Assembly: GCA_947504725.1 (NCBI GenBank) | Contig: CANNHN010000003.1 | Span: 88,945-152,944 of the forward strand | Direction of reading: 5' to 3' | Length of the DNA: 64,000 nucleotides | Source of the DNA: Bacteroidota bacterium | GTDB lineage: Bacteria > Bacteroidota > Bacteroidia > 2-12-FULL-35-15 | In this document: positions 46,187-63,358 of the stretch, piece by piece | How positions within the stretch are numbered: position 1 is the stretch's first letter | Layout: each line of letters opens with the position of its first letter | Notes under the pieces: model-generated | Seen by the model: the letters and a program-made list of their open reading frames with translations, nothing else | Told to the model about the DNA's origin: nothing | The model's database searches: none | Translations under genes and position numbers: made by a program

Positions 46187-46211
46187 TCGCAACCATCTTC
46201 CCCACACTTTT

Positions 46212-46235
46212 GTCACTTCGAGCGGAGTCGAGAAG
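46212..46235. repeat. Family-A repeat half-site (gtcacttcgagcggagtcgagaag)
   Basis: A near-identical 24-mer to the copy at 49300-49325. It lies just downstream of the PorP/SprF stop. Confidence 0.65.
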
Positions 46236-46284
46236 TCCCTGTCCAAAAACACTTACACTCATTTATGAAAATGCATATTACGGA

Positions 46285-46393
46285 GCGTCATTGCGAGTCC
46301 CGTCCCGATAATTCGGGACGGGACTCGCAATCTCATCCATAAAGGGTTGACTATGCTGGTGTGGGATTGCTTCGTGCCTCGCAATGACGTTCT
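46285..46393. repeat. Family-B MITE-like element (~105 bp, 12-bp terminal inverted repeats CGTCATTGCGAG...CTCGCAATGACG) with an internal perfect 18-bp-stem hairpin
   Basis: The left end is gcgtcattgcgag. The internal palindrome is ttgcgagtcccgtcccga-taat-tcgggacgggactcgcaa. The right end is ggattgcttcgtgcctcgcaatgacgttc. Copies are at 47385-47487 and 59874-59980, with partial copies at 52421-52465 and 63338-63358. Confidence 0.7.
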
Positions 46394-46436
46394 TATTTAT
46401 GCTTTGATTTATTTAAAGAAAGTTTATATTTGTTAC

Positions 46437-47378
46437 ATGAAAAAACAAATGCTTCCTGTACTTATTCTTTTTATCTTTTTGTCGTCAAAGCTCGTTTCCC
46501 AACCATTTGCCGATATTCTCAACTTTAATTATCAAACTTTTTCATCAAACTATACTGATAGTACTCAATGGAAAAATAAAACAGACAATTATTTTCTTAA
46601 TTTATTTTTACCGAAGAATTTTAAAAATGGAAACACATTTTTGTTGCGTTTGAATTCTGAGCATTTAAGTTCTACTATCAGTCCTGATTCATCTTATTCT
46701 TATTCTTTAACCAGTATTTCTATGCCAATTGGAATGAAGTTGGTTTCAAAAAATAAAAAATGGGAAACAGTTGTATTGGTTATACCTAAAATTGCTTCCG
46801 ACTTTAGAGATGCTATTGATGCAAACGATTATCAATACGGAGGAATATTCTTAGAACACTTTGTGCCGAATGATAAAGTGAAAATTAAAGCTGGATTATA
46901 TTATAATCGTGAAGCTTTTGGAGACTTGTTTGTGCCATTAGTTGGTGTAGATTGGAAAGTAAATGACCGAATAAATTTATATGGAATTTTGCCAACAAAC
47001 TATAAAGTTGAATTCAATCTTTTGAAAAACAAATTATACACAGGAGTGAATCTGAAATTTTTCACCCGTTCATTTCGATTATCACAAACTCAAAACAACG
47101 ATTATGTGCGTTACGATGAATCGCAAGTGAAAATTTTTGTGGATTATTTTGTTGTTCCTAAAGTGCTCTTGTTTGCTGAAGTAGGCTATTCCATTGGCAG
47201 AAGCCCTTGGCAACATAAAAACGGCACAAACGAGAAGAAAGAGCCTTATTATGCAAATCCAATTTATACACCTATTAAAAACTATCCTATTATAAGTGTT
47301 GGTTTGGCGTATCGTGTGAGATTTGATTTGATAAAGAAGGAAGAAGCTAAAACAGCAATGATAACTCCTGCATTTTAA
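46437..47378 (+). CDS. hypothetical outer-membrane/secreted protein (signal peptide; beta-rich)
   Basis: The ATG at 46437 gives MKKQMLPVLILFIFLSSKLVSQ, a signal peptide. The ORF-track start at 46347 adds 30 codons that are simply a translation of the Family-B repeat, so I reject that extension. Confidence 0.5.
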   Translation: MKKQMLPVLILFIFLSSKLVSQPFADILNFNYQTFSSNYTDSTQWKNKTDNYFLNLFLPKNFKNGNTFLLRLNSEHLSSTISPDSSYSYSLTSISMPIGMKLVSKNKKWETVVLVIPKIASDFRDAIDANDYQYGGIFLEHFVPNDKVKIKAGLYYNREAFGDLFVPLVGVDWKVNDRINLYGILPTNYKVEFNLLKNKLYTGVNLKFFTRSFRLSQTQNNDYVRYDESQVKIFVDYFVVPKVLLFAEVGYSIGRSPWQHKNGTNEKKEPYYANPIYTPIKNYPIISVGLAYRVRFDLIKKEEAKTAMITPAF

Positions 47379-47384
47379 TTACGG

Positions 47385-47487
47385 GGCGTCATTGCGAGAG
47401 AAGCGAAGCAATCTCACACTAGTATCGTCAGCCCTTAATGGATGAGATTGCCACATCGCGCGAAAAGGAGCGAATCGCAATGACGTT
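47385..47487. repeat. Family-B MITE-like element, full copy
   Basis: The sequence runs ggggcgtcattgcgagaagcgaagcaatctcacac...atgagattgccacatcgcgcgaaaaggagcgaatcgcaatgacgttc. It has TIRs (1 mismatch) and an internal hairpin gcgcg-aaaagga-gcg. It is collinear with the copy at 59874-59980. Confidence 0.7.
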
Positions 47488-47532
47488 CTTTTATTCAACA
47501 GTTTAAGAAGAACAAATATTATTATTAAACCT

Positions 47533-48000
47533 ATGTCAAAAAAGAAAAAGTTTTTTATCCTATTGGTTATTGTTTTTATCATCATTCAATTCATTCGTCC
47601 GGAGCGCAATCTTGGCAAACGTGAAACAGAAAATACCATTTTTGTTTCCAACGAAGTAGGGCAAATTTTGCAAACTTCTTGTTTTGATTGTCATTCCAAT
47701 TATACGGTATACCCTTGGTATACCAATATTCAACCAATTGGTTGGTGGTTGAATCACCACGTGAATGAAGGGAAGGAAGAATTGAATTTTTCGGAATTTG
47801 AAACTTATTCTTTAAAACGCAAACTCCATAAGTTGGAAGAGATTAAGGAGATGGTGGATGAAAATGAAATGCCATTGCCTTCTTATTTGTGGATTCATGG
47901 AGAAGCAAAATTAACTTCTGAGCAAAAAGATGTGCTTTCAAAGTGGGTGTTGGAGACAAGAAAATATCTTGCAGATACGCTTTCTAGACCGAAATTGTAA
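47533..48000 (+). CDS. putative heme-binding domain (Haem_bd) protein
   Basis: CFDCHSNYTVYPWYTNIQPIGWW...GKEELNFSEF matches the conserved CxxCH-like heme-binding domain family. An N-terminal TM helix is present. Confidence 0.5.
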   Translation: MSKKKKFFILLVIVFIIIQFIRPERNLGKRETENTIFVSNEVGQILQTSCFDCHSNYTVYPWYTNIQPIGWWLNHHVNEGKEELNFSEFETYSLKRKLHKLEEIKEMVDENEMPLPSYLWIHGEAKLTSEQKDVLSKWVLETRKYLADTLSRPKL

Positions 48001-48149
48001 TCTATCTATCTCTGGCTTAAAACAAGGAATCTCTTTTTTTATAGGCATTGCAGGGACTATTTTTATTAATTTAGTTAGGTTTTATTCTCCCCCAAACCTC
48101 ATATTTCTATCTCCTTTTTTCGTATATTTACATCACCAAAAAAACGATT

Positions 48150-49238
48150 ATGAGCATTACAGCAGAACAAGTTTTAGAAGCCTTAAAAAATGTAGAAGAC
48201 CCCGATTTAAAGAAAGATTTGGTGACCTTGGGTATGATTAAAGATTTAGTGGTAGATGGTAAAAATGTAAACTTTACTGTTGTGCTTACTACGCCTGCAT
48301 GTCCTATGAAAGAAATGATTCACAAAGCGTGCGTTAATGCCGTTTTGCATTTTGTAGATAAAGAAGCGATTGTAAAAGTAGAGATGACCTCAAATGTTAC
48401 TTCTGGAAAAGTAAATTCTGGCCCACTATTACCACAAGTGAAAAATATAATAGCTGTTGCATCCGGTAAAGGTGGAGTAGGGAAATCTACTATTGCTTCC
48501 AACTTGGCTGTAGCCTTGGCAAAACAAGGCGCTAAAGTTGGCTTGGTAGATGCGGATATTTACGGACCATCTCAAACCATTATGTTTGACGTGGTGCATG
48601 AAAGACCATTGATTAAATCGATTGATGGAAAAAATAAAATAGTTCCTGTTGAAAGTTATGGGGTAAAATTATTGTCCATCGGATTTTTTGCTGATACATC
48701 TCAAGCAATTGTATGGCGAGGACCAATGGCTGCAAAAGCATTAACACAAATGTTTGCCGATGCTGATTGGGGTGAATTAGATTATATGATTATTGATTTA
48801 CCTCCAGGTACTGGTGATATTCATTTATCGTTGGTTGGTGCAATTCCTTTGAATGGTGTTGTGATTGTAAGTACGCCACAAAATGTAGCGTTGGCTGATG
48901 CACAAAAAGGAGTTGGAATGTTCCAGATGGAATCTATCAACGTGCCCGTATTGGGCATTGTAGAAAACATGGCCTATTTTACACCAGCTGAACTTCCGAA
49001 CAATAAATATTATATCTTTGGTAAGGACGGAGCAAAAACGCTTGCAGAAAAATTGGGTGTTCCTTTATTAGGCGAAATTCCATTAGTGCAAAGTATTTGT
49101 GAAGCAGGTGATGCTGGTCGTCCAGCTGTCATGCAAGAAAGTACACCTCAAGCATTGGCTTTTATGGAAATGGCTAGTAAAATTGCGCAACAAGTTTCGA
49201 TTGTAAATAGTCAGAGGCAGCTGGTTACGAGTAACTAA
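48150..49238 (+). CDS. apbC: Mrp/NBP35-family iron-sulfur cluster carrier ATPase (ApbC), with an N-terminal DUF59/MIP18-like domain
   Basis: The P-loop is VASGKGGVGKSTIASNLA. The CxxC cluster-binding pair is CEAGDAGRP. It is 362 aa long. Confidence 0.8.
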   Translation: MSITAEQVLEALKNVEDPDLKKDLVTLGMIKDLVVDGKNVNFTVVLTTPACPMKEMIHKACVNAVLHFVDKEAIVKVEMTSNVTSGKVNSGPLLPQVKNIIAVASGKGGVGKSTIASNLAVALAKQGAKVGLVDADIYGPSQTIMFDVVHERPLIKSIDGKNKIVPVESYGVKLLSIGFFADTSQAIVWRGPMAAKALTQMFADADWGELDYMIIDLPPGTGDIHLSLVGAIPLNGVVIVSTPQNVALADAQKGVGMFQMESINVPVLGIVENMAYFTPAELPNNKYYIFGKDGAKTLAEKLGVPLLGEIPLVQSICEAGDAGRPAVMQESTPQALAFMEMASKIAQQVSIVNSQRQLVTSN

Positions 49239-49299
49239 GAAAAAAGTAGACAATTGTCAGTAGACAAGAAAAATAAATAAAAAATAGACAAATGTTTTT

Positions 49300-49325
49300 G
49301 TCACTTCGAGCGGAGTCGAGAAGCG
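49300..49325. repeat. Family-A repeat half-site, ending 1 nt before the NifU-like start codon
   Basis: The sequence is gtcacttcgagcggagtcgagaagcg, followed immediately by the ATG at 49326. Confidence 0.65.
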
Positions 49326-49595
49326 ATGGACGTAATTCATAATACGATGATAGACCTTTCAAAAAAAGTAGAAGAAGCATTAGATCAAATTCGTCCATAT
49401 TTGCAAGCGGATGGTGGCAATGTTTCGTTGGTTGAAATTACAGATGATTTTGTCGTAAAAGTGGAATTACTTGGTGCATGCAAATCATGTTCAATGAGTA
49501 TGATGACCATGAAAGCAGGAATTGAAGAATCCATCAAAAGATCCGTGCCTGAAATTAAAAGCGTAGAAGCCGTTAACTTGTCATTAGCTATTTAA
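49326..49595 (+). CDS. NifU-like (Nfu-type) Fe-S cluster assembly domain protein
   Basis: An 89-aa protein. VEEALDQIRPYLQADGGNVSLVEI...LGACKSCSMS is the NifU C-terminal domain, with a CxxC motif. Confidence 0.7.
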   Translation: MDVIHNTMIDLSKKVEEALDQIRPYLQADGGNVSLVEITDDFVVKVELLGACKSCSMSMMTMKAGIEESIKRSVPEIKSVEAVNLSLAI

Positions 49596-50945
49596 ATGAA
49601 AAACCTTATCACCTTATCACTTATCACTGTATCACTTTTTTCATGCACTCCAGAAATTGAGATGCCAGAACCAAGTGCAGGTGATGCTGATTTTTCGAAG
49701 ATGATTGCTGTGGGTGGAAATTATTTGGCTGGATATCAAGATGGCGCTTTGTATGAAAAAGGACAACGACTTTCTATTCCTGCTTTGTTAGCAGAACAAT
49801 TTAAATTGGTGGGCGGTCCAACATTCGGGCAAGCATTGATGCCAGATAACAATGGGTTAGGAGTGAATAGTAAACTTTGGGAAAGTTGGTTCATTACTCC
49901 AAGTCATTTGGGAAATAAAACAAACTGTCAAGGTATTACTGCTCTTTCTCCCATAAAATATACGATTGGTACAACAGCTGCAACGCCTTATTTAACAGAT
50001 ATGGCAGGAAATGCAGTTCAGAATTTAGCAATTCCATTTGCAAGTCTTTCCGATTATATGAATCCATCTTTTGGATACAGTTCTTTTACTGGTAATACAA
50101 ATCCTTATTATGCGCGTATTGCAAGTAATCCTGGCACATCTACTTTGTACGAAGATGCTCGTCAGCAAAATGCCAGCTTTATTACAGCTTGGTTGGGAAT
50201 GGAAGATATTTACAATTTTGCAAGCAAAGGCGGAACCGGAGCTCCGATTCCATCTGCATCAAGTTTTGCAAACTATTTGGATACCATTTTAGGAGGATTA
50301 ACTGCAAGTGGTGCCAAAGGAGTTATTGCAAATATTCCAGATTTTAGAAATTACCCTTATTACACATTGGTCGCTTGGGACAATGCAGTATTGGTGCGCC
50401 AAACGCAAGTCGATTCATTGATGGATATTTATACACTTGCCGGTTTAACACATTTAAATTTTGCATTGGGTAGAAATGGATTTGTAATAAATGATCCTGC
50501 AGCTGTTGGTGGTGTTCGTCAAATGCATGCCGGTGAATACATTACACTTTCTGTTCCAATCGATTCGATGAAATGTTATAAATATGGTTTGTTCTTCGAA
50601 ACAATAAACGATCGTTATATTTTGGATAGTACAGAAGTATACGAAATTGACCAAGCCATAAATTCTTACAATGCAGTGATTGCTCAAAAAGCGAATCAAT
50701 ATAATTTAGCGTTAGTGGATATGCATTCTTATATGAGTAGTGTTTATACTGGAATCAAATGGAATGGAGTTGATATGAATATGACATTTGTGAGTGGTGG
50801 CTTTTTAAGTTTAGATGGTTATCACCCGAATCAAAAAGGCTATTCTTTGATTGCGAATGAATTTATTAAAGCAATCAATTCTAAATACAATGCGACCATT
50901 CCGGAAGTGTATTGTACGGAGTGTGATGGGGTGAAGTTTCCTTAA
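49596..50945 (+). CDS. lipoprotein, probable SGNH/GDSL-type hydrolase
   Basis: The lipobox is LSLITVSLFSC. The C-terminal LDGYHPNQKGY contains the DxxH catalytic dyad typical of SGNH hydrolases. The assignment is tentative. Confidence 0.4.
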   Translation: MKNLITLSLITVSLFSCTPEIEMPEPSAGDADFSKMIAVGGNYLAGYQDGALYEKGQRLSIPALLAEQFKLVGGPTFGQALMPDNNGLGVNSKLWESWFITPSHLGNKTNCQGITALSPIKYTIGTTAATPYLTDMAGNAVQNLAIPFASLSDYMNPSFGYSSFTGNTNPYYARIASNPGTSTLYEDARQQNASFITAWLGMEDIYNFASKGGTGAPIPSASSFANYLDTILGGLTASGAKGVIANIPDFRNYPYYTLVAWDNAVLVRQTQVDSLMDIYTLAGLTHLNFALGRNGFVINDPAAVGGVRQMHAGEYITLSVPIDSMKCYKYGLFFETINDRYILDSTEVYEIDQAINSYNAVIAQKANQYNLALVDMHSYMSSVYTGIKWNGVDMNMTFVSGGFLSLDGYHPNQKGYSLIANEFIKAINSKYNATIPEVYCTECDGVKFP

Positions 50946-50960
50946 TGGAACGCGGATAAT

Positions 50961-51044
50961 GCGCCCTTCGACTCCGCTCAGGGTGACGTTCTAATGAATG
51001 TTACTCTCTGCCGTCACACTGAGCGGAGTCGAAGTGTAAGGGCT
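50961..51044. repeat. Family-A repeat, inverted pair forming a ~27-bp-arm hairpin
   Basis: The left arm gcgcccttcgactccgctcagggtgac (50961-50987) and the right arm gtcacactgagcggagtcgaagtgtaagggc (51014-51044) are reverse complements apart from a 4-nt insertion. Confidence 0.7.
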
Positions 51045-51077
51045 AAAAACATCAATAGCATCGAATAGTACTTTAAA

Positions 51078-51737
51078 ATGAAAAAACTAATCATAATCTT
51101 TTTCTTTTTTCCTACACTTGCTTTCTCGCAAGGAACATTTGATGTCGTTTATACAACCACAGATAGTATGGTTTACGATACTCCAGGTGCTTTTATGTCA
51201 ATTCATACTACCATTCATAATTTATCTGCAACGGATAGTGTTAAACTAAATATTTTCAAGCAGTTTATTGATATTCCTTCCACTTGGGAAACAGCAATTT
51301 GCACAGATGTTTGTTATCCTTCAACAGTAAATTCAGTTAATTTATCTTTAGCTCCTTCTGATAGTCAAGAATTTGTTTTTTATTTTTATACAGATTTAGT
51401 TGCTGATAGTGGTTATGCTAAAGTGTTGTACACAAATTTAAATATTCCTAGCAATACGGTTTTGCATGGCTATCATGGAATCACACAATCTCCGTTAGGT
51501 ATTTCTGAAAAAGAAGAAGCAACATTTTCTGTTTATCCGAATCCTGCAACGGATGTGATTAATGTGAAATCAAATTCAACCGGATTCTATATCATCTCGG
51601 ATGCTTTAGGTTGTGTTGTGTTGAAAGGTAGATTAGCAACCATACAATCAAGTATAGCAATTAGTAATCTTTCAAAAGGATTTTATTTTTTGACAATACA
51701 AGGGCAGGGGAAGAGTGTGAAAATTTTGAAACAGTAA
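51078..51737 (+). CDS. T9SS type-A C-terminal sorting-domain protein (small secreted cargo of unknown function)
   Basis: It has a signal peptide. The C-terminal ~70 aa, FSVYPNPATDVINVKSN...GFYFLTIQGQGKSVKILKQ, is the Por_Secre_tail pattern. Confidence 0.65.
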   Translation: MKKLIIIFFFFPTLAFSQGTFDVVYTTTDSMVYDTPGAFMSIHTTIHNLSATDSVKLNIFKQFIDIPSTWETAICTDVCYPSTVNSVNLSLAPSDSQEFVFYFYTDLVADSGYAKVLYTNLNIPSNTVLHGYHGITQSPLGISEKEEATFSVYPNPATDVINVKSNSTGFYIISDALGCVVLKGRLATIQSSIAISNLSKGFYFLTIQGQGKSVKILKQ

Positions 51738-51741
51738 TTTT

Positions 51742-52392
51742 TTACTCCAAAACAATCTTCTTAGTCAAAACTTTATCGGCAACAAGTACTTGTACGAAAT
51801 AAATCCCGCTCCGTAAATCACCTCTGTCTATTGCTAAAGTTTTTTCAGTAGTTGAAACAGTCTTCACCATTTTTCCCGTAACATCATACAGCTTAATAGT
51901 AGTTGCAGTGTTATTTAATTCACTTAGATCTAAATTGATGATAGTGGTTGCAGGATTTGGATATATATTGAAAGAAACGTTTGATGCAAGTTCATTTATT
52001 CCAACCGAGCAAGTCATTGGATAGCTGTAAGCACAAGCCGGCAAAGAATCTGTTGGGTCATCCAAATAAACAGTTCCAGTAAATCCAGCTGAAATGCTAT
52101 CAACTGAGGTTGGAATAGTGTGTGCAACAGTATCGCCAGCTAACTGTCCGAAAAAGTAATATAGAGTATCGATATTTGCAATGGTATCTCCCAACGAATT
52201 GGTTACTACAACTATCGGATAATTTATAAAAACACTATCGCCATTGTAAATAGTAACATCAAGTGTGTTGCTTCCTGCTGTATCAACATTGTTAATGTTG
52301 AGTATGCAAAAACTTCCGCAAGTAATATTTTGTGATTTACTAGAAAAAGTAAATGCGATGATAGCGATGGAAAGGAGTAGTAATTTTTTCAT
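51742..52392 (-). CDS. T9SS type-A C-terminal sorting-domain protein (small secreted cargo of unknown function)
   Basis: The C-terminus is FNIYPNPATTIINLDLS...GIYFVQVLVADKVLTKKIVLE. The ATG at 52392 (MKKLLLLSIAIIAF) is the likely start. The ORF-track GTG start at 52431 extends into the Family-B repeat. Confidence 0.65.
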   Translation of the reverse strand: MKKLLLLSIAIIAFTFSSKSQNITCGSFCILNINNVDTAGSNTLDVTIYNGDSVFINYPIVVVTNSLGDTIANIDTLYYFFGQLAGDTVAHTIPTSVDSISAGFTGTVYLDDPTDSLPACAYSYPMTCSVGINELASNVSFNIYPNPATTIINLDLSELNNTATTIKLYDVTGKMVKTVSTTEKTLAIDRGDLRSGIYFVQVLVADKVLTKKIVLE

Positions 52393-52420
52393 AATAATGA
52401 TTTCAATTCTGCACTTAAAT

Positions 52421-52465
52421 GAGATTGCCACATCACGCTAAAAAGCGTGACTCGCAATGACGTCC
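52421..52465. repeat. Family-B element, right half only (gagattgccacatc + hairpin + ctcgcaatgacg TIR)
   Basis: The sequence is gagattgccacatcacgctaaaaagcgtgactcgcaatgacgtcc. It is identical in architecture to the right halves of the copies at 47441-47487 and 59935-59980. It fills the gap between pyrG and the T9SS cargo gene. Confidence 0.65.
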
Positions 52466-52467
52466 AA

Positions 52468-54090
<1,623 letters not shown>

Positions 54091-54232
54091 CTAAATTTGA
54101 TTTCAGGTATTCCCTGACCAGAGGAACTGTTTGTAGGTCGTACAAAAGTAGTAATTATTTCCTCTGAATGGAGGGTGTATTGATAATTTGTTGAAAAAAG
54201 TAAGGCGGGTCGAATGAGTGCATATTTGGAAG

Positions 54233-54330
54233 TCGTCATGCCGTGCCACGACACGGCATCTGCCTGTTGATGGCGACTCGCCTACTAATCGGGAGATCCC
54301 GTGTCGGGGCACGGGATGACGTTTGAAAAG
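54233..54330. repeat. Family-C structured repeat, inverted pair of units
   Basis: Unit one is cgtcatgccgtgccacgacacggcatctgcc and unit two is gggagatcccgtgtcggggcacgggatgacg. They are reverse-complement-related to each other and to the copy at 23136-23180, and each unit is itself a hairpin. Confidence 0.6.
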
Positions 54331-54354
54331 ATGAAAATGTTTAGATACAAACAA

Positions 54355-54389
54355 AAAAGCTCCTTAGAATTAAGTACTAAGGAGCTTTT
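54355..54389 (-). terminator. rho-independent terminator downstream of the TonB-dependent receptor 54408-56771
   Basis: The sequence is aaaagctccttagaattaagtactaaggagctttt: a 10-bp perfect stem. On the minus strand it is followed by a U-run. Confidence 0.6.
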
Positions 54390-54407
54390 AAAAAGGTTTT
54401 GTATCTA

Positions 54408-56771
54408 CTAAAACGTCATCACTACAGCAATAGAAGGCAAGAATGGTAGCTGGTCTACACGTTTATACCGAACTCTATCAAAATAGAACACGTTTTTACG
54501 ACTATAAACATTTGTGGCTCCAGCAGATGCTTCTAATTTGGTATTTTCAAACAAAAGGAACGTACGTTTCAAATTGATATCTAAGCGATGGTACCAAGGC
54601 AATTCTTTTACTTGTCCCTCATCAAAAAAGTAATTCAAATCTCCTTGTCCGCTTACATAATTTGTATTGATTCCTTGCGTAAAATTTTGATCTTCATAAA
54701 ATCCACCTGTCGGTTTGAATGGGAATCCTGAACCTAGGTTCCATCGAACTCCAAATTCCCAATTGCGATTTTTTCCGAAAATATAAGATCCAACAATGTT
54801 TGCATTGTGTCTTCTGTCGAAATGTGGACGATATGTTTCAACTCCATCCCATCGATTTACAAATCCTAATGAATAAACTACCCATAAATAAACTCGTTTA
54901 TAGTCATATTTTAAAACAACATCAATTCCTTGAGCTCTTCCAGTCTCAATTATGAAATCGCTTTTTAAAATTTCCGGAATAGCTGAAGTGCTTTCATTAT
55001 CATCAAACATCTTGTTTGAATTCAAGTTTGTTAATTGTTTGAAATCTTTTCGGTAAGCCTCGATGTTTAGGTCTAAGTGACGAGCTAAATCAAATTCAAA
55101 GCCTGCAACATAGTGGTTAGCTTTTTGCAATTTGTGTTTAACATCTTTCACTTCTCCGTTTTCGGCAGTGTAATTTTCTGGTAAATTATCTGGGCCAGAA
55201 AGGAAACCATAAAACAAATTCACAACGTCTCTTTCGGAACTAGCTGCGATTAAGTTTTGTGAATACATCCCTGCTGCAAATTTAAATCGGATACGAGGCA
55301 CAATGTTCCATTTTAAACCCAAACGTGGTTCTGGAGAAAAGTTGGCTAACGATGCATAATACATCACACGGAAACTAGGTTCAAGTAATAGTTTTTTCTT
55401 TTTTGAAACGAATTTATATTTCACATATCCTGCAATTTCTGTGGTGCTTTCTGCTTGAGAAATTCTTCTGTTAGAAGGATTGTAAAAGTCGAAATCGGTT
55501 TTGAAACCCAATACTTCCAATCCGTAATTTATTTCGTTTTTACCCATAAAGTAAGTAAACCCGACACCCATATTAAATCCTTTGATGGCACTTGTTTTAA
55601 GTGAATCGCTTTGAGGTTTTAATTTGATTTTGTATTGTGAATAAGCGAAATTTCCAGTAATAAGAATTGGAGAATTTTGAGGAACCAATAAGAAATTGGC
55701 ACCACCACCATACGAATCCCAACGCATATCCTGCACCGATTTGTAACTAACTCTGTCATTAAAATTAAATCCAAAAAGATTTAGTTTACTTCCATTGTTT
55801 GTATTGAAAGAAACTTTTGCATAATAATCGTTAAAGCTGAATGGCAATCCTGCGGTATCAATATAGCTGTATAAAATCTTTGAAGTAGTTGGTAAGTAAG
55901 AAGTTTTTGCTGATATAATAAAAGATGCAGTTGCTTTACTATCATCCTTTTGTTTAATCAATGGACCTTCAGCTAAAACTTTTGCTCCAAATGGACTCAC
56001 CCCAATTTTACCAGCCACTCTGCGTTTATTACCATCTCTGGTAGTAATATCCATGATGGATGAAATTCTTCCTCCATATTCAGCTCCAAATCCACCACTA
56101 TAAACATCCGCATTACGAATAATATCTGCATCAAATACAGAAAACAAACCGATAGAGTGGAAAGGGTTATAAACAATCATACCATCCAAAAGAACTTTGT
56201 TTTGAATTGGTGAACCTCCACGAATATATAATTGTCCCCCTTGGTCACCAGTAAAAATAACCCCAGGTAATACCTGTAAATATTGTGCTAAATCGGGCTC
56301 GCCTCCAACGGATGGTAGTTTTTTGATTGTAATCGGGTCAATTTTATTTACAGAAATTTGTGTTTCAGTTTGTTTTGCTTCTTGTTCTGCCGAAATTTCA
56401 ATTACTTTTAATTTTACATCTGATTTGGTGATATATAATTTTTTTGTTAAAATTTCTCCAGCTTTTACAGTTACGTTTTCTTGCAAACTGTCATATCCCA
56501 TTGTCGAAGAGATCATAAGTGTATAATTTCCTACTGGTACTTTTGTTATAGAAAAATAACCGTTTACATCGGTCGCATTTCCAATTGTAGTTCCTTTCAA
56601 AACAACATTCGTAAATAACACAGGTTCTCCTGAATCTTTTAAATAAACAAATCCACGAATTGTTCCTGTAGCAGCTCCCGTTTGTGCAAAAGTGCTTGAA
56701 GAAAAGATGACGAAAAGCGCAAGGAATAATTGTTTAATTGATAATCTTGAGATACTCATATTTTGTAGCAA
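54408..56771 (-). CDS. TonB-dependent receptor with an N-terminal carboxypeptidase-regulatory-like domain
   Basis: It has a signal peptide. The CarbopepD_reg-like block is GTIRGFVYLKDSGEPV...DVNGYFSITKVPVGNYTL. The plug is next (…GGSPIQNKVLLDGM…), then a 22-strand barrel with a C-terminal aromatic residue. Confidence 0.8.
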   Translation of the reverse strand: MLQNMSISRLSIKQLFLALFVIFSSSTFAQTGAATGTIRGFVYLKDSGEPVLFTNVVLKGTTIGNATDVNGYFSITKVPVGNYTLMISSTMGYDSLQENVTVKAGEILTKKLYITKSDVKLKVIEISAEQEAKQTETQISVNKIDPITIKKLPSVGGEPDLAQYLQVLPGVIFTGDQGGQLYIRGGSPIQNKVLLDGMIVYNPFHSIGLFSVFDADIIRNADVYSGGFGAEYGGRISSIMDITTRDGNKRRVAGKIGVSPFGAKVLAEGPLIKQKDDSKATASFIISAKTSYLPTTSKILYSYIDTAGLPFSFNDYYAKVSFNTNNGSKLNLFGFNFNDRVSYKSVQDMRWDSYGGGANFLLVPQNSPILITGNFAYSQYKIKLKPQSDSLKTSAIKGFNMGVGFTYFMGKNEINYGLEVLGFKTDFDFYNPSNRRISQAESTTEIAGYVKYKFVSKKKKLLLEPSFRVMYYASLANFSPEPRLGLKWNIVPRIRFKFAAGMYSQNLIAASSERDVVNLFYGFLSGPDNLPENYTAENGEVKDVKHKLQKANHYVAGFEFDLARHLDLNIEAYRKDFKQLTNLNSNKMFDDNESTSAIPEILKSDFIIETGRAQGIDVVLKYDYKRVYLWVVYSLGFVNRWDGVETYRPHFDRRHNANIVGSYIFGKNRNWEFGVRWNLGSGFPFKPTGGFYEDQNFTQGINTNYVSGQGDLNYFFDEGQVKELPWYHRLDINLKRTFLLFENTKLEASAGATNVYSRKNVFYFDRVRYKRVDQLPFLPSIAVVMTF

Positions 56772-56989
56772 TTTATTAGATAATGCCTCTTTTTTAAAGG
56801 TTTGTAAATGTAATAATTTATTGCTTTAAAATTGGGGTAATTTTTTAGAATGCACATTCTTGGAGATAATCGGTGGTTTTTGAGGGGTAAATGGTAATTG
56901 ACTTTGATTTTTGATGATTTGTCACCCACTATTACATCTAGTATTTCAATCGGCTTCTTTACTTTTTGAAGGCAAAAAGTAACAAAAAC

Positions 56990-57340
56990 CTTTTCGATTT
57001 CATAAGGAAATTTCTTCCTTTCCTATCGGACGGAAGAACCACGGATAATTGATCGCATGCGATGTATTTCTCCGATAAGGAAATTTTTCTGGCGTTCATT
57101 ACCGCTATTTCTGGATGAAATCAAAACCGCCACCCCAAATGATTAAACATTCAACAATAAATCAAAGACGAATATATTTTGCGAAGACGCGGGTAAGCCA
57201 TGGCCGGGCGCGATGCCGTTTAGAGGTGAACGCCATTTCACTAGAAAATCTTAGCAAAAACTTTAGTTTTTTTGCTTAGGTTTTCAGGGAAATGGTGAGA
57301 GGCGGGAAGCAATCGCCCGGGCTTGATTCTTTTGTTTCTT
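56990..57340. ncRNA. candidate structured RNA (leader or small RNA) in the 670-bp spacer between the two TonB-dependent receptor genes; class unassigned, strand uncertain
   Basis: GC-rich islands in an AT-rich spacer form nested helices. An 11-bp helix ttcctatcgga/tccgataaggaa encloses the palindrome atcgcatgcgat (56990-57100). A long-range pairing ggccgggcg (57201-57209) / cgcccgggc (57314-57322) encloses the local hairpins agcaaaaa/tttttgct and gtgaa-atggcg-ttcac. No ORF is present. Confidence 0.25.
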
Positions 57341-57442
57341 TTCTGATCAAGCAGAAAAGAAAAGAAGAAAATTGCGGAGCAAGAATCAATATGGAGAATA
57401 CTCAAGTTATTTGAAGAGCACTAATCTTTGCTCAAATAGAAA

Positions 57443-59821
57443 TTAAAACTCAATCTTATATCCAAAATAAGGAAACAAGCCCAACTGGTATTCTTGTTGC
57501 ACTTTTTGTAAAATAGGGTCGTATGATTCTCTTAAAATATTTTTCGTGTCAAAAATATTCTCAACCACTAAAAAAATGCTTTGTGAAGTTCGTTTGCGAT
57601 TCGTTTTGTAAGAAACTTTAAGGTCGAATCGTGAATAATCTTTCAACTGTTTTGAAAATGCTTCTGAGTCATTATAAACAACATCGCCATAAATTTTTGA
57701 TTTTTCTAAATCAATAGGAGTGTATCTATTTCCTCCTGCTTGTGTGAATTTTAAATCAATTGATAATGCTCTGTTTTTGTTTTTTCCTAAGTTGAATTCG
57801 TATCCAGCCAATGCATTTAGAACATAACCTCCGTCATAGCTTGTGTGATGTTCCACACCATTGCTTCCTCTGTATTTAGATTGATAAAGTGATACAGTAG
57901 CTAAATAATAAAAGTGTTTGTTGAAGAATTTTTCAATAGTAAGTTCAATTCCTATGTTTTCTCCATCACCTTTGTTTTCTAAACTATCCACCAATGGAAT
58001 TCCTTCTAATGCATTACCAACATTAATCATTGAAAAAGAGGATTGATAATTTTTTTGAACAGGAACATTGTAAACGTATTGATAATATCCTTCTATTTTT
58101 AATCGATAATCTTTAGCAAAATTTAAATCGTAACTTATGATGGCATGTTGACTTTTTGATAGATCTAAAGTTTTGTTGCTTCTGAAATAGCTATCCGTAG
58201 AAGGGATGTATGTTTCATAAAAGTAGTATATGGTGGGTTGCATCTGACTATGCATGCCATATCCTAAGCTTAAATTTTGCTTTTTACTAACTTGGAATCG
58301 CAACCCCAAACGTGGTTCAATTGCAGAAGTGTTGTTTAATAAAAAATTCTGATAATGTACTCCGCTGTTAATTGTGATTTTGTCTGTTGGTCGAAACTGC
58401 CAATGTGCAAAGCCTTGTATTAAATCAGCTGTAGAGTTTTTCACATTTAAATCATAAATGTATTTCCCATAAATATTAGAATAAGAAAACGATTTAGCAT
58501 CAAAATAAATGGTTTGATATGTTGCACCAATTTTTATCAAATGCTTTGCATTTATTTTTTTAGAAACAGTATAGTTTGCAATAAAATTAGCTTCGGTAGA
58601 TTTGTTCTTTCTGTCTAAAAATGAAGACTGATCCACAGGAGAGATAGTATCAACATACGCATCTAAATCAGTTCCAGAAACGGATAAAGAGAGTTTGCCA
58701 GATGTTTTTGAATTGAAAAAATATAAATGAGAAACTCCCGTTGCTCCCATGCTTGATCCGAAAACTAGATCTTGACCTCCTGTTATATAGGACCAGTCAG
58801 TAGATTTTCGATCGCTATCTAATAAAGTTAATTTGCTTTTTCCACCAATTCCCCAAAGTGTAAATATTCCAGCTTTTTTAGTTGGCACATTCACTTTGTA
58901 TGAAATGTCTTGGTATTGAGGACTTGCAGAAACGCCAAACCGAATCCCCAATTTATTAAACACTTCCAAAGTAGAATATCGATAATTAATTAAGTAAGAG
59001 CTTCCATTTTTTTTCGAGATAGGGCCTTCAGCGCCTAATTCAACACCATTAATCCCGAGTGAGCCAGTGTATTCATTTTGTTCGTTGTTCCCATTTCTTA
59101 ATTTGATATCAAAAACAGCAGCTGTTTTATTCCCGTATTCAGCAGGGAAGGCGCCCGTTAAAAAATCGGAGTTGCCTAAAATATTATTGTTAAGCATGCT
59201 TATTGGCCCACCGGTAGCGCCTTGTGCAGAAAAATGATTGGGGTTAGGAATGTCTATTCCTTCCATTCTCCATAAAACACCTAGTGGTGAATTTCCTCTT
59301 ACAATAATATCATTTCGTGCATCATTTCCAGATGAAACACCAGCATAGTTTGCAACCATTTTGCTTGGGTCGCCTCTACTGCCAGCATATCTTCCCGTTT
59401 CTTCCGCCAAAAAATTACGAGACGAAACCGTTACCAAATCATTGTTGGCTTTTGTTTTGTCTTTTTCCGCTACCACTTCTACTACATTGGAAGTGTATAC
59501 TTTTTCTCTTAATTCAATGTTGAGAACAACTTCTTTTCCGGAAGTGACAATAATATTGTTGATGAATGTTTCTTCGTAACCAATAGAACTAATTTTTAGT
59601 GCTCTTCTTCCAACAGGAATTTTATCCAATCTGAACTTTCCCTCTCCATCGCTAGAAGAACCAATCAATGTGTCGCTGTTTACTAAAATGATAGTTGCTC
59701 CCGGTATTGTGGATTTGGAATCGGCATCAATCACTTTTCCACGGATAGTTTGTGTATAGGTTTGCGCGCTAAGATTTAGTCCGCTTATTATAATTAGAAA
59801 TATAAAAGTGATTTTTTTCAC
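57443..59821 (-). CDS. TonB-dependent receptor with an N-terminal carboxypeptidase-regulatory-like domain
   Basis: It has a signal peptide. The CarbopepD_reg-like block is TIRGKVIDADSKSTIPGATIILVNSDTLIGSSSDGEGKFRLDKIPVGRRAL. A plug and beta-barrel follow, with the C-terminus ...YKIEF. Confidence 0.8.
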   Translation of the reverse strand: MKKITFIFLIIISGLNLSAQTYTQTIRGKVIDADSKSTIPGATIILVNSDTLIGSSSDGEGKFRLDKIPVGRRALKISSIGYEETFINNIIVTSGKEVVLNIELREKVYTSNVVEVVAEKDKTKANNDLVTVSSRNFLAEETGRYAGSRGDPSKMVANYAGVSSGNDARNDIIVRGNSPLGVLWRMEGIDIPNPNHFSAQGATGGPISMLNNNILGNSDFLTGAFPAEYGNKTAAVFDIKLRNGNNEQNEYTGSLGINGVELGAEGPISKKNGSSYLINYRYSTLEVFNKLGIRFGVSASPQYQDISYKVNVPTKKAGIFTLWGIGGKSKLTLLDSDRKSTDWSYITGGQDLVFGSSMGATGVSHLYFFNSKTSGKLSLSVSGTDLDAYVDTISPVDQSSFLDRKNKSTEANFIANYTVSKKINAKHLIKIGATYQTIYFDAKSFSYSNIYGKYIYDLNVKNSTADLIQGFAHWQFRPTDKITINSGVHYQNFLLNNTSAIEPRLGLRFQVSKKQNLSLGYGMHSQMQPTIYYFYETYIPSTDSYFRSNKTLDLSKSQHAIISYDLNFAKDYRLKIEGYYQYVYNVPVQKNYQSSFSMINVGNALEGIPLVDSLENKGDGENIGIELTIEKFFNKHFYYLATVSLYQSKYRGSNGVEHHTSYDGGYVLNALAGYEFNLGKNKNRALSIDLKFTQAGGNRYTPIDLEKSKIYGDVVYNDSEAFSKQLKDYSRFDLKVSYKTNRKRTSQSIFLVVENIFDTKNILRESYDPILQKVQQEYQLGLFPYFGYKIEF

Positions 59822-59873
59822 GATACAAAAGTAACATTAAAATGTCATTTGTTTTCTAAATTCAATTCATTTG

Positions 59874-59980
59874 CGGAGCGTCATTGCGAATGGATAGAAG
59901 GAATCTCACACGAACTTCGACAGCCCAGTTAAGATGAGATTGCCAAATCACCCCGAATACTTTGGGTGACTCGCAATTAT
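59874..59980. repeat. Family-B MITE-like element, full copy (right TIR degenerate)
   Basis: The sequence is gcggagcgtcattgcgaatggatagaaggaatctcacacgaacttcgacagcccagttaagatgagattgccaaatcaccccgaatactttgggtgactcgcaattatg. It is collinear block-by-block with 47385-47487. Confidence 0.7.
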
Positions 59981-60052
59981 GTTCTATGTTAAGATTGTCG
60001 TTCGAGAAAACATTTGGGTTTTCCATCAGTAGAATATTGCTATTTTTGTAGA

Positions 60053-60838
60053 ATGAACAACCAACTATCCTTTTTTGGCCAATTTGGATTAGCCATTAAA
60101 AGCTATGGGAAAGCTATTTCATTTGTTTTTGAAAAAGGGTTATGGATATATTTTATTTATACCATTATCATTGCTTGTATCCTTACTTTCGGTGGTTTTA
60201 AATTGATTCATAGTTTGGTAGATTGGATTGAAGGGTGGATAATGTCTTATGTAAGTTCCGATTCCGATACTGGTATTTTTAGTTTTTTAGGTACCGCATT
60301 GCATGTGCTTTTATCAGTAGGACTAAAGATTTTATTCTTTTTTGTTTTCTCTACTTTTAGCAAATATATTTTATTGATTATAATGTCGCCCATTATGGCA
60401 TTGCTGTCTGAACGGACAGAGGAAATTATTACTGGAAACGTTTATCCATTTAATATTGCTCAATTTATTAAAGATATTATTAGAGGAGTTGTTATCGCTC
60501 TTCGTAATATGTTCATAGAATTTGGTTTTATTTTTCTTGGTTTTTTTTTTGTTTGGATTCCTATAATTGGATGGATTTGTGCACTGTTTTTAGTTGTTAT
60601 ATCTTATTACTTTTACGGGTTTTCAATGATTGATTATGTAAGTGAAAGAAGAAAGATGGGTATTTCTCAGAGCACGTCTTATGTTAGGAAGCACAAAGGA
60701 TTAGCTATAGGGAATGGATTTATATTTTCATTAATATTCGCAATTCCCTTTATTGGTGCAATCATCGGTGCGGTTATAGCACCTGTAGCTGCTTGTATTG
60801 CTGTTATGGATTTAGAAAGTAGACATGCAAAAAATTAA
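60053..60838 (+). CDS. EI24/CysZ-like (DUF540) integral membrane protein
   Basis: It has about 5 TM helices. The conserved N-terminal block is FGQFGLAIKSYGKAISFVFEKGLW. The ATG at 60053 is preferred. Confidence 0.4.
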   Translation: MNNQLSFFGQFGLAIKSYGKAISFVFEKGLWIYFIYTIIIACILTFGGFKLIHSLVDWIEGWIMSYVSSDSDTGIFSFLGTALHVLLSVGLKILFFFVFSTFSKYILLIIMSPIMALLSERTEEIITGNVYPFNIAQFIKDIIRGVVIALRNMFIEFGFIFLGFFFVWIPIIGWICALFLVVISYYFYGFSMIDYVSERRKMGISQSTSYVRKHKGLAIGNGFIFSLIFAIPFIGAIIGAVIAPVAACIAVMDLESRHAKN

Positions 60839-61580
60839 AATTTCAATTGTTTCGTATTTAAATTCTAAGCCTTTTATCGCTGGGTTGAATAAATCTGATT
60901 TGATAAATAAAATAGATCTTCAGTTAGACATCCCTTCTGTTTGTGCTCAAAAATTAATGGATGGAACAGTTGATTTGGGTCTGATTCCTGTAGCCGTTCT
61001 TCCTTTGCTAAAAGAAAAACACATTGTTAGCGATTATTGTATTGGTGCGGTTGGGAAAGTAGCTTCTGTTATGTTATACAGCAATGTTCCTCTTGAAGAA
61101 ATTACGAATGTTCTATTGGATTATCAATCACGTACATCTGTTTCGTTAGTGAAAGTTTTAGCTAGTAAATTTTGGAATATTAATCCCCAATGGATAAATG
61201 CGAAAGAGAATTATGAATCTGAAATTATAGAAACAACTGCTGCAGTAATTATTGGTGATCGAACATTTGGATTAGAAAATAAATATAATTTTAGTTGCGA
61301 TTTGGCTGAAGAATGGCAAAAGTATACGGGTTTGCCATTTGTATTTGCTTGCTGGGTTTCCAATAAAGAATTGCCTTCTTCTTTTATCAATGAGTTTAAT
61401 ACTGCATTGAAAATGGGCTTAAATAACCGCTCTGAATTGATAATTGAACTTCAAAAAAGTGATTTGTACCCTACGAATATCGCTACTTATCTCAATAAAA
61501 ACATAGACTACGACTACGATTCAGCCAAAAAACAAGGTTTGGAACTATTTTTGTCTTATCAAGCCAATCTTGAGCAATAA
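60825..61580 (+). CDS. menaquinone biosynthesis protein of the MqnA/MqnD family (futalosine pathway; periplasmic-binding-protein-like fold)
   Basis: The N-terminus KISIVSYLNSKPF is the SYLNxxPF motif of MqnA/MqnD. It is 251 aa long. Confidence 0.5.
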   Translation: MQKIKISIVSYLNSKPFIAGLNKSDLINKIDLQLDIPSVCAQKLMDGTVDLGLIPVAVLPLLKEKHIVSDYCIGAVGKVASVMLYSNVPLEEITNVLLDYQSRTSVSLVKVLASKFWNINPQWINAKENYESEIIETTAAVIIGDRTFGLENKYNFSCDLAEEWQKYTGLPFVFACWVSNKELPSSFINEFNTALKMGLNNRSELIIELQKSDLYPTNIATYLNKNIDYDYDSAKKQGLELFLSYQANLEQ

Positions 61581-61616
61581 TTTTTTATATTTACAATTCA
61601 AATTAAAATTTTCCAT

Positions 61617-63278
61617 ATGAAAAAGATAATGTATTTGTTTGTGTTTTCAATGTTCGTTTTTGGGTCGATTTCGGCTCAGGAAAAACCAGTTGAAAACAAA
61701 GAAAATAAACAGAACGTTTTTGATAAAGGCGGTGATGTTGCGAAAATGGTTTTAGCAGAACAAAAGTTTTTTGCTATGGATTATAAAGGCGCATTGGACA
61801 TTTATAAAGATGTATTGTCGGGAAAACCAAGTGATGCAAACGTTATTTTTCACATTGCAGAATGTTATTACGAATTAAAACAATTAAAAGAGGCGCGTGA
61901 AAATGCCGAAAAATCAAGAAGTATCGACCCGAAAGCAAATGTTTACAATTCGCTTTTGTTGGGAAAGCTTTATCAGCTAGAAGATATGAAAGATGAGGCA
62001 TTGGTGGAATACAATGCTTTCAAAGCAAATGCTGGTAGCAATAAAAAAATTGAGGAAAGCGAAGTAGATAAATATATTTTACAAGTGAATACAGCAAAAG
62101 AATTAATGGCAAATCCTATTGACGTTGTTGTAGAAAACATGGGTGATGTAATTAATTCAGAATTTGAAGACAAGGCTCCGATGGTAAGTGCAGATGGTAA
62201 AACATTAATTTTTACTTCTCAACGTCATGGTAAATCTAGTGCATTGAATCCTGATGATGGAATGTATTTTGAAGATATCTATATCTCTCGCTGGGATACG
62301 CTTAAAAAAACATGGGGTGATGCAGAATTAATTCCTGGTTCATTAAATACTGAAGGACAAGATGCAGCAACGAGTATTTCTCCTGATGGAAAACAAATTT
62401 TCCTTTTCAAAAATGATATTGAAGCTGAATCTCGTGGTGGTGATGTGTATGTTTCTCGTTTGAGTTCTTCTGGAAAATGGGGGGCACCAAAGTCGATGGG
62501 TAAGCCTATTAATACTACTTTTGCTGAGTTAGGAGCATGTATTTCTCCAGATGGAAAAACATTGTATTTTGTAAGTGAGCGTCAAGGTAGTTTAGGGAAT
62601 GCAGATATCTGGATGGTGAAACGTAAAACACGTACGGAGTGGGAAAAACCAGTTAACCTGGGTGATGTTGTAAATACAACTGAAGATGATGCAGGTATAT
62701 TTTTAGCTCCTGATGGAAAAACATTATTTTTTACTTCAAAAGGACATAACTCAATGGGTGGGTATGATATTTTTAAAACTGTTAATGAAGGTGGCAAATG
62801 GAGTACTCCTGTAAATTTAGGTTATCCAATCAACACAATCTACAACGACTTTTGTTTTAGTTTGTCTGTAGATGCAAAAACCGGTTATATCGCAAGTAAC
62901 AGAAAAGGTGGTTTAGGTGGTCGTGATGTTTACAAAGTAGATTTAACAAATTACATGGTTCTTGAAAAAGACATGAAGAAAAAAGTGGACGGAGGACCAG
63001 TAATGGCAATTCTGAAAGGTGATGTTTTTGATGCAGGAGCTGGTGCAGGAATGGAAGCAGAGATTGTTGTTTATGATGAAACAGGTGCTACCAAAGTAGG
63101 AAGCACAAATTCAAGTGAGGGTAGCGGAGAATATTTCTTAACATTATTAGCTGGAAAAACATACATGGTAAAAATTGATGTTAAAGGTTTTAAAGCTGTT
63201 GAAGAAAAAGTAGAAATTAAAGCTGCTGCTGAAGGAGCTACAACCATTGTGAAGCATTATTTGTTATATAAAAAATAA
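61617..63278 (+). CDS. secreted TPR and TolB-like (PD40 beta-propeller) repeat protein with a C-terminal carboxypeptidase-regulatory-like domain
   Basis: It has a signal peptide and TPR-like helices (aa ~40-150). There are at least four PD40 repeats (SADGKTLIFTSQR, SPDGKQIFLF, SPDGKTLYFVSER...ADIWMV, APDGKTLFFTS...YDIFK). It matches the N-terminal two-thirds of bacteroidete OmpA/TolB-type proteins but lacks the OmpA domain. Confidence 0.55.
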   Translation: MKKIMYLFVFSMFVFGSISAQEKPVENKENKQNVFDKGGDVAKMVLAEQKFFAMDYKGALDIYKDVLSGKPSDANVIFHIAECYYELKQLKEARENAEKSRSIDPKANVYNSLLLGKLYQLEDMKDEALVEYNAFKANAGSNKKIEESEVDKYILQVNTAKELMANPIDVVVENMGDVINSEFEDKAPMVSADGKTLIFTSQRHGKSSALNPDDGMYFEDIYISRWDTLKKTWGDAELIPGSLNTEGQDAATSISPDGKQIFLFKNDIEAESRGGDVYVSRLSSSGKWGAPKSMGKPINTTFAELGACISPDGKTLYFVSERQGSLGNADIWMVKRKTRTEWEKPVNLGDVVNTTEDDAGIFLAPDGKTLFFTSKGHNSMGGYDIFKTVNEGGKWSTPVNLGYPINTIYNDFCFSLSVDAKTGYIASNRKGGLGGRDVYKVDLTNYMVLEKDMKKKVDGGPVMAILKGDVFDAGAGAGMEAEIVVYDETGATKVGSTNSSEGSGEYFLTLLAGKTYMVKIDVKGFKAVEEKVEIKAAAEGATTIVKHYLLYKK

Positions 63279-63337: not shown

Positions 63338-63358
63338 TTCCTTGCAATGACGATTCTT
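63338..63358. repeat. Family-B TIR fragment (ccttgcaatgacgattc)
   Basis: It matches the right terminal repeat ctcgcaatgacg plus flanking bases. It is a solo fragment. Confidence 0.3.

Follow-up and report, generated by a model that had tools for sequence, protein, structure and literature searches.

Structured intergenic repeats such as ERIC/IRU, Correia/NEMIS, BOX and RUP are transcribed and carry regulatory signals, and TonB-dependent receptors are often controlled by riboswitches. In Bacteroidota, intergenic small RNAs with Rho-independent terminators have been described, including the DonS-type antisense RNAs that lie beside susC-like receptor genes (Ryan et al. 2020, PMC7366714). Here we analyse a 64-kb stretch of DNA from an uncultured member of this phylum (contig CANNHN010000003.1, positions 88,945 to 152,944; "the window" throughout, numbered from its first letter), and in particular a GC-rich intergenic element, island 2, situated between two TonB-dependent receptor genes that follow each other on the minus strand. 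Island 2 belongs to a family of elements whose helices covary, whose plus strand (in the orientation of the window) folds better than the minus strand in every copy, and in which a stem and a U-rich tract are conserved. We assign a probability of about 0.5 to the reading that an undescribed small RNA is encoded here, by a plus-strand gene that runs antisense to the upstream of the two receptor genes and converges with it. Like the small RNAs of Bacteroidota (PMC7366714), it would be a short non-coding unit of ~100-160 nt on the opposite strand beside a receptor gene, with a -7-like box and a stem followed by a U-tract. Unlike the DonS-type antisense RNAs (PMC7366714), it overlaps the 5' end of neither receptor gene and converges with the upstream one at that gene's 3' end; and unlike the described Bacteroides small RNAs it has no sequence or Rfam match and is multi-copy and patchy in distribution.

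The spacer that holds island 2 is the widest gap between open reading frames (ORFs) in the window, counting ORFs of at least 100 amino acids. The upstream receptor gene occupies 57443..59821 on the minus strand (CarboxypepD_reg domain; stop codon 57443-57445), and the downstream receptor gene occupies 54408..56759 on the same strand (CarboxypepD_reg and Plug domains). The latter starts at ATG 56759 and not at TTG 56771, an ATG being found at the aligned start in 18 of 19 orthologues, so the spacer runs from 56760 to 57442 (683 nt). A preliminary description of this DNA had singled out the ORF-free spacer between two minus-strand receptor genes as the largest in the window and had placed GC-rich islands in its AT-rich DNA. 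Both observations hold, as does the edge at 57442; only the other edge has to be shifted, from 56771 to the ATG. GC content is 0.40-0.45 over 57000-57400, while the spacer edges have 0.22-0.34. Taken as a whole, the spacer gives a better fold than its dinucleotide shuffles (z = -4.6 for the minus strand, -5.45 for the plus strand), and since the two strands fold alike, this indicates DNA palindromes as much as a strand-specific RNA. Both islands are carried by an insert of ~540 nt (56898..57442).

Copies of island 2 were sought with nhmmer (the insert as query, then iterated) and with covariance models in 1.1 Mb of related loci. The copy in this window spans 57168-57345 (covariance-model match of 194.6 bits). 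The nhmmer search yields a copy at 4391-4513 of locus L014, between a GDSL lipase gene and the orthologue of the downstream receptor, and the iterated search one at 5716-5837 of L006, after the gene following pyrG; L006 has a second, degraded copy with insertions at 101-204, upstream of the receptor of that genome. The covariance models yield two further copies in L220, a locus of the same organism as L014: L220A (12576-12770), which lies 197 nt past the upstream-receptor orthologue's stop codon, and L220B (21099-21320), degraded by insertions. No further copies are found in the 1.1 Mb. Read in the receptor sense, the members share the order AT-rich hairpin, AATCAAG, an arm of 8-9 nt, ATTGCT, a variable hairpin, CGGCATCG and the matching arm; the variable hairpin takes a long form in this genome and both L220 copies and a short one in L014 and L006. 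The five intact copies all lie 65-270 nt downstream of a gene, in a single fixed orientation relative to that gene (read from coordinates). The organism of L014 and L220 is RIFCSPLOWO2_12_FULL_35_15-like and has its receptors in separate loci (L014 4236-5000, L220 12380-12845), each with an element copy at the former junction; in L220 the upstream-receptor orthologue no longer adjoins the second receptor.

The helices of the family are supported by compensatory change. The pairing of CCGGGCG with CGCCCGG that was described earlier as 9 bp long does exist, with seven contiguous pairs and one more past a mismatch; it forms the closing helix P2, with the 5' arm GGCCGGGCG at 57202..57210 and the 3' arm CGCCCGGGC at 57314..57322 (plus strand). 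This helix exceeds chance, as homologous copies have differing arms that each find a matching partner: CCCGGGCG (CCGGGCG), AACAAACG, AGCAAACG and AAAGCATA all occur with their own complement, and in P2 alone seven of nine pairs have changes on both sides across copies. RNAalifold, run on the six-copy alignment, gives 33 pairs, 15 of them changed on both sides. Standard pairs are formed by 95.5% of the cells, compared with 82% in column shuffles, none of which reached the observed value; when the partner is slid by 1-3 columns, 31-48% of cells are paired. The inner hairpin P4 (57231..57297, plus strand) is shared with L220A and L220B, and its stems covary. Its apical loop, CUUUAG on the plus strand (57261-57266), is conserved while the stem shifts from AU-rich to GC-rich.

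The folding is also asymmetric between strands. The receptor-antisense strand, that is the plus strand of the window, is the more stable one in six of six copies, by 3-13 kcal/mol (antisense/sense energies in kcal/mol: -56.5/-44.4, -49.3/-38.6, -21.2/-15.1, -21.3/-17.9, -50.2/-37.2 and -64.6/-53.2), and has 3-11 G-U pairs per copy versus 1-4 on the sense strand. Three substitutions at paired sites separate this genome from the related locus L002, and for two of the three the plus strand, but not the minus strand, retains a standard pair in both genomes. On the antisense strand of each of the six copies, the closing stem P2 is followed immediately by a U-rich tract, which in the window is TTGATTCTTTTGTTTCTTTTCTG (57323..57345, plus strand) and resembles the tail of a terminator.

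Such asymmetry bears on the possibility that island 2 is instead an element of the minus-strand 3' untranslated region (UTR), or an intercistronic element, of the upstream receptor mRNA, which it would stabilise or insulate as REP elements do in operons. Position speaks for this: the element begins 65 nt past the upstream receptor's stop codon, no obvious terminator of that gene is seen between the stop codon and the insert, each copy lies downstream of a gene in fixed orientation, and the RIFCSPLOWO2-like genome retains a copy 197 nt after the orthologous receptor despite the lost adjacency. On the minus strand, however, the fold is the worse one in every copy (6/6), the G-U pairs become A-C mismatches, and the hairpin has no U-tract; in addition, genomes with spacers of 148-151 nt manage without the element. 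Because of the strand asymmetry we consider a minus-strand 3' UTR role decidedly unlikely.

A plus-strand small RNA, by comparison, can be given plausible ends. The candidate (57189..57345, plus strand) would start near 57189, at GCGGGUAAG, behind a promoter-like TAnTTTG box (TATTTTG, 57175..57181, plus strand) that stands 7 nt ahead of the conserved GCGGGTAAG. Its fold would be a single long hairpin (P2-P3-P4) with conserved internal and apical loops, and it would end at the P2 stem and the U-rich tract near 57345, giving an RNA of ~157 nt. It is separated by ~98 nt from the upstream receptor's stop codon and stands ~430 nt upstream of the downstream start codon. An alternative start at the TACTTTTTG hairpin (56960) would produce a longer form of up to ~375 nt that includes island 1, the other GC-rich island. 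A TAnTTTG box is found 5-7 nt ahead of a conserved GCG motif (a GCGGGTAAG-like start) in four of the six copies; the background density of the box is 0.81 per kb, with a roughly 2-fold enrichment upstream of ORFs in the window, on small numbers (n = 6). Transcription, the start site, and an action in trans through the conserved unpaired loops are predicted from these features. A coding role is ruled out by frameshifts and mainly non-synonymous changes between this genome and L002 (alignment read by eye). What results is a concrete, testable candidate for a structured RNA family that Rfam lacks; its strand and ends are defined, a covariance model describes it, and it adjoins nutrient-uptake genes in uncultured Bacteroidota. 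The option of a small RNA had been raised in the preliminary description; for island 2 it is supported by the covarying hairpin family, the stronger plus-strand fold and the stem with its U-tract, on the strand opposite to the one implied there.

Several observations weigh against a small RNA gene. The covariation is supported by just four independent lineages, and G-T mispairs in a single-stranded DNA hairpin would favour the same strand as G-U pairs in an RNA. The stem of the putative terminator encloses 25-100 nt, which is unusual; because the enclosed loop is so large, a simple terminator scan made no call at P2. The TAnTTTG box is one base short of TAnnTTTG, reads TAATTTA in L002 and is absent in L006. 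No target was found among 47 translation start regions, where the duplex energies with the start regions of the adjacent receptors rank 31st and 38th, by a full-length duplex prediction that ignores intramolecular structure and is uninformative. The distribution is patchy, with the element in 4 of ~85 genomes sampled around the locus. Finally, one genome holds three copies in a stretch of 34 kb, and two copies (L220B and L006 101-204) are degraded, a pattern that would suit a selfish repeat equally well.

That the family is patchy, multi-copy in one genome and decaying implies that the element duplicates or moves, and a small RNA gene of this distribution would have to spread by duplication or mobility. 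The main rival goes further and sees in island 2 a purely selfish, non-autonomous palindromic DNA element, similar to MITEs (miniature inverted-repeat transposable elements) or to REP, with no RNA function; its hairpin would be kept for a transposase or for the processing of single-stranded DNA. The site is an insertion hot spot with unrelated repeats in equally close genomes, copies stand in differing genomic contexts, inverted pieces occur in L005 and L007, and 52-nt direct repeats of a different type (containing TCGAGCGGAGTCGAGAA) flank the L014 copy, all of which is as expected of a mobile repeat. Yet the terminal hairpin arms differ wholly among copies and the internal loops are conserved, the opposite of terminal repeats bound by a transposase, and neither terminal inverted repeats nor a target-site duplication are seen at the ends of L220A, L220B and the window copy. 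Copy number is low as well, with one copy in the 64-kb window and, for a 20-mer of island 2 searched in a metagenome collection, one true match (in the L002-type lineage) in addition to two chance matches in GC-rich DNA. Viral contigs scanned with three patterns gave no matches or chance matches that had neither the 3' motif nor the helix. Compared with ERIC/IRU, Correia/NEMIS, BOX and RUP, island 2 is likewise a long imperfect hairpin in the 100-200-nt range, intergenic or 3' to genes, variable in copy number, with decayed copies and with other repeats beside it; unlike them, its ends vary and covary, no target duplication is seen, there is one copy per 64 kb, and folding is strand-asymmetric. 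We regard a purely selfish element as a serious, though less likely, alternative.

Conservation between this genome and L002 is a further point in favour of the small RNA gene. Fourfold-degenerate sites of both receptor genes are 44-54% identical between the two, identity is ~84% for coding DNA, 47-67% for intergenic DNA elsewhere and 91-96% for the insert. Across ~10 kb of synteny no exact run exceeds those of 111 nt (57064-56954) and 67 nt (57370-57304); the third longest, 44 nt, is inside pyrG. Contained in the 67-nt run (57304-57370) is an AT-rich hairpin, H1, of TTTCTTTTCTG and CAGAAAAGAAA (57335..57362). The 111-nt and 67-nt runs stand where synonymous sites are near saturation, and local conservation this extreme cleanly signals either function or very recent exchange. 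For a selfish element the identity would reflect recent spread or recombination. Divergence of the insert is patchy, from 0% to ~22% by block, a heterogeneity that one recent transfer would not yield, which counts against the selfish element. The unusual conservation extends into the coding sequence of the upstream receptor, at its 3' end (57443-57720), where synonymous/third-position identity with L002 is 65/85 in the last 93 codons versus 380/649 in the remainder. Given this rise, recombination may still account for the identity of the insert, and the rise would fit the recombination tract that a selfish element calls for.

Between these two lies the idea that island 2 is a self-propagating RNA gene of ~110-160 nt, with its own promoter and terminator, that lands downstream of genes for outer-membrane or secreted proteins: a domesticated mobile regulator. 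Its host range would be the uncultured freshwater Bacteroidota, and the resident copy would be under strong purifying selection together with a partner block, the 111-nt run, that is private to the lineage. The separation of the receptors in the RIFCSPLOWO2_12_FULL_35_15-like genome suggests a rearrangement at or between element copies, and the self-propagating gene would have that rearrangement, which splits the receptor genes, take place at its own copies. We hold this to be unlikely, and retain the small RNA gene, spread by whatever means, as the preferred reading.

The preliminary description had favoured a riboswitch-like 5' leader of the downstream receptor. For comparison, 80 loci with relatives of that receptor were fetched, 12 of which have both receptors in tandem or an orthologous spacer, and additional orthologous contigs were obtained via protein look-up. 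Orthologous spacers are 148-690 nt long and have in common only the ~140 nt that adjoin the downstream start codon. This promoter-proximal block (56760..56897, minus strand) is 70-87% identical by BLAST against 21 other spacers and includes an almost invariant CAATAAATTATTACATTTAC; consensus folding of the orthologues gives no RNA structure for it, which removes further support from a leader. Within the block, 46 nt ahead of the ATG, the minus strand has a TAnnTTTG-type -7 box, TACATTTA (56805..56812), kept in 18 of 19 aligned orthologous regions. It matches the Bacteroidetes -7 consensus TAnnTTTG (PMC7366714) at 7 of 8 positions, and over 56700-57500 on both strands TAnnTTT[GA] occurs solely at 56812-56805. 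Judging from these motifs, 56760-56897 is the ordinary promoter region of the downstream receptor.

A riboswitch, or any other cis-regulatory leader of the downstream receptor, is therefore hard to reconcile with the locus: the helices are missing from the orthologous spacers of equally close genomes, as are the islands themselves, and the predicted promoter lies downstream of the islands, the distance from these to the conserved -7 box being 180-530 nt. Both are outcomes that the preliminary description had named as refuting a leader. With Rfam 15 the 64-kb window has no match at the gathering threshold, and at E<=10 has chance matches only, of 12-22 bits, the best having 22 bits against a cut-off of 65 bits; on the L014 and L006 copies at E<=1 there is nothing credible, only noise of the microRNA/snoRNA type. 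The better-folding strand is the antisense one, and copies of the family adjoin unrelated genes. What a riboswitch would explain is that the region is highly structured: like the cobalamin and thiamine pyrophosphate (TPP) riboswitches of TonB receptors, island 2 combines a place beside a receptor gene with nested helices and conserved unpaired nucleotides, and it is unlike them in its position upstream of the promoter, in its strand, in its lack of conservation in orthologous leaders and in matching no Rfam model. We consider a leader extremely improbable, and this false lead is removed.

Directly after the -7 box of the downstream receptor the alignment shows a small hairpin, CCTTT-AAAAAA-GAGG (56786..56800, minus strand), which in distant orthologues (L012-L014, L019, L020) is a GC-rich stem with a T-run, terminator-like, ~25 nt before the start codon. 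Upstream of the box, a ACCATTTAnCCCnnAAAAACnACCGATTATCT block on the minus strand (56850-56897), which lacks a consensus RNA fold, is kept by the majority of the 19 orthologous regions aligned and may be the binding region of a regulator. In the same block, ACCATTT.CCC resembles one arm of the island 2 hairpin.

The window also carries CGTC-tagged palindromic repeats of 85-123 nt (CGTCATTGCGAG...CTCGCAATGACG), here called Family-B, which resemble the CGTC-tagged palindromic repeats of Di Nocera et al. 2013 (PMC3733652). Copies or fragments lie at 46286-46389, 47387-47485, 52377-52462, 59879-59985 and 63341-63352, one copy being directly upstream of the upstream receptor gene. A weak resemblance to the Family-B core had prompted the suggestion that island 2 could be a decayed repeat of this kind, and the 9-mer GAAGCAATC is common to it and to two Family-B copies. 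This 9-mer occurs three times in the window versus 0.83 expected, which is weakly unusual, and across the island 2 family only its ATTGCT is conserved. With 13 copies as its basis, a Family-B profile hidden Markov model (HMM) picks up 35 in ~1 Mb of related loci, the window's own included, and run with nhmmer --max at E<=100 it has no hit in the spacer or in two of the three other element regions, with only 3.4 bits in the third. The arm pattern CGTCATTGCGAG...CTCGCAATGACG with two mismatches allowed has nine sites in the window and none in the spacer, and the terminal motifs are absent. From these comparisons the shared GAAGCAATC is judged a coincidence, and at the sensitivity of a profile HMM descent from Family-B can practically be dismissed. 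A more general likeness is seen to REP and CGTC-tagged repeats (PMC3733652), which are also palindromic and extragenic, occupy the same intergenic hot spots and keep structure over stem sequence. Island 2 is unlike the CGTC-tagged repeats (PMC3733652) in having no CGTC/GTAG tag, in being much longer with multiple helices, and in escaping the Family-B profile. A literature search for the repeat sequences returned merely unrelated primer matches.

Island 1 (56992..57126) is bounded by the inverted repeat TTTCGATTTCAT (56992-57003) and ATGAAATCAAAA (57115-57126). It contains the perfect palindrome ATCGCATGCGAT at 57052-57063 and the duplicated ATAAGGAAATTT at 57002-57013 and 57075-57086, both as first described save for one base in the coordinates of the latter, and in addition a half-palindromic motif, GGAAATTTC. 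The 11-bp helix assigned to the island fares less well: the arms are complementary at 10 of 12 positions, the helix is absent from the minus-strand minimum-energy fold, and conservation does not support it, one arm being rewritten in L002, the sole relative that has it. The 111-nt block identical to L002 (100%, 56954..57064) spans the core of island 1 and a terminal hairpin, the perfect TTACTTTTTG-AAGG-CAAAAAGTAA (56959..56982). Outside this genome, island 1 exists in the L002 type only; its terminal hairpin unit alone recurs elsewhere, as a ~60-nt unit (the TTACTTTTTG...CAAAAAGTAA hairpin with ~35 nt more), inverted in L005 and at the head of contig L006. A longer plus-strand RNA that begins at the TACTTTTTG hairpin might have the 111-nt block as its 5' part or as its control region, or the block might be a private piece of regulatory DNA.

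An invertible promoter or regulatory DNA switch, with island 1 as operator or inversion cassette governing one of the two receptors, as in Bacteroides phase variation, would make use of the flanking 12-nt inverted repeat, of the perfect 12-bp palindrome together with the half-palindromic GGAAATTTC, of the opposite orientation of the hairpin unit in L005 and of the 100% conservation of the block in L002. Against such a switch, island 1 has the same orientation in 7 of 7 insert-bearing assemblies and includes no canonical -7 box, and no recombinase gene was noted near the spacer in Pfam scans of 14 ORFs (45260-63278). The palindromes are unique within the 64-kb window, and no convincing shared inverted repeats of the sort that mark an inverton came to light when they were looked for. 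A DNA switch at island 1 is very unlikely.

The insert with both islands is limited to this genome (L094 is identical) and to the L002-type lineage, namely L002, L083, L086, L090 and L087, the last being cut short. Other genomes with equally similar receptors (89-93% amino-acid identity) carry unrelated fillers at the same site: a Family-B repeat in L093, GTCATCCC...ATGAC and TCGAGCGGAGTCGAGAA repeats in L092, L033 and L003, a 174-nt palindrome in L001, three tandem 107-nt units of 86-89% identity in L025 (4429-5000), and purine-rich palindromes in L085, L088 and L091; L008 and L009 have practically no filler. The comparison shows that the space between the receptors is an insertion hot spot rather than a conserved leader. 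BLASTN of the insert against plasmid and phage collections gives no match, and ARAGORN finds neither tRNA nor tmRNA. Small ORFs of the spacer (46 aa, 54 aa, an arginine-rich one of 24 aa and the 14-aa MKSKRFLLLFAFKK) were considered as peptides or type I toxins and rejected, as in L002 they show indels, a lost start codon or mainly non-synonymous changes, and in L014 they are unconserved (by eye).

Two further repeat types were seen around these loci. One, with TCGAGCGGAGTCGAGAA or GTCAGTTCGAG...GTTCGAGAAC, lies in the window at 46212-46236 and also in the L033, L092 and L014 spacers. The other, with the core CCCCCTTTACAAAGGGGG...GGGGGATTT, occurs several times in the L005 and L006 spacers and in L006 5460-5700. 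The host itself is an uncultured member of the Bacteroidota with type IX secretion genes nearby, and its nearest relatives are metagenome-assembled genomes (MAGs) from freshwater and soil. Ahead of the upstream receptor gene, on the minus strand of 59822-59870, a canonical -7 box (TACTTTTG) stands merely 6 nt before the annotated GTG start; its mRNA may be leaderless or very short-leadered, or its start codon may be mis-set. Elsewhere in the window, 36661-45258 holds an ORF of very large size (2865 aa), with a PorP/SprF gene after it.

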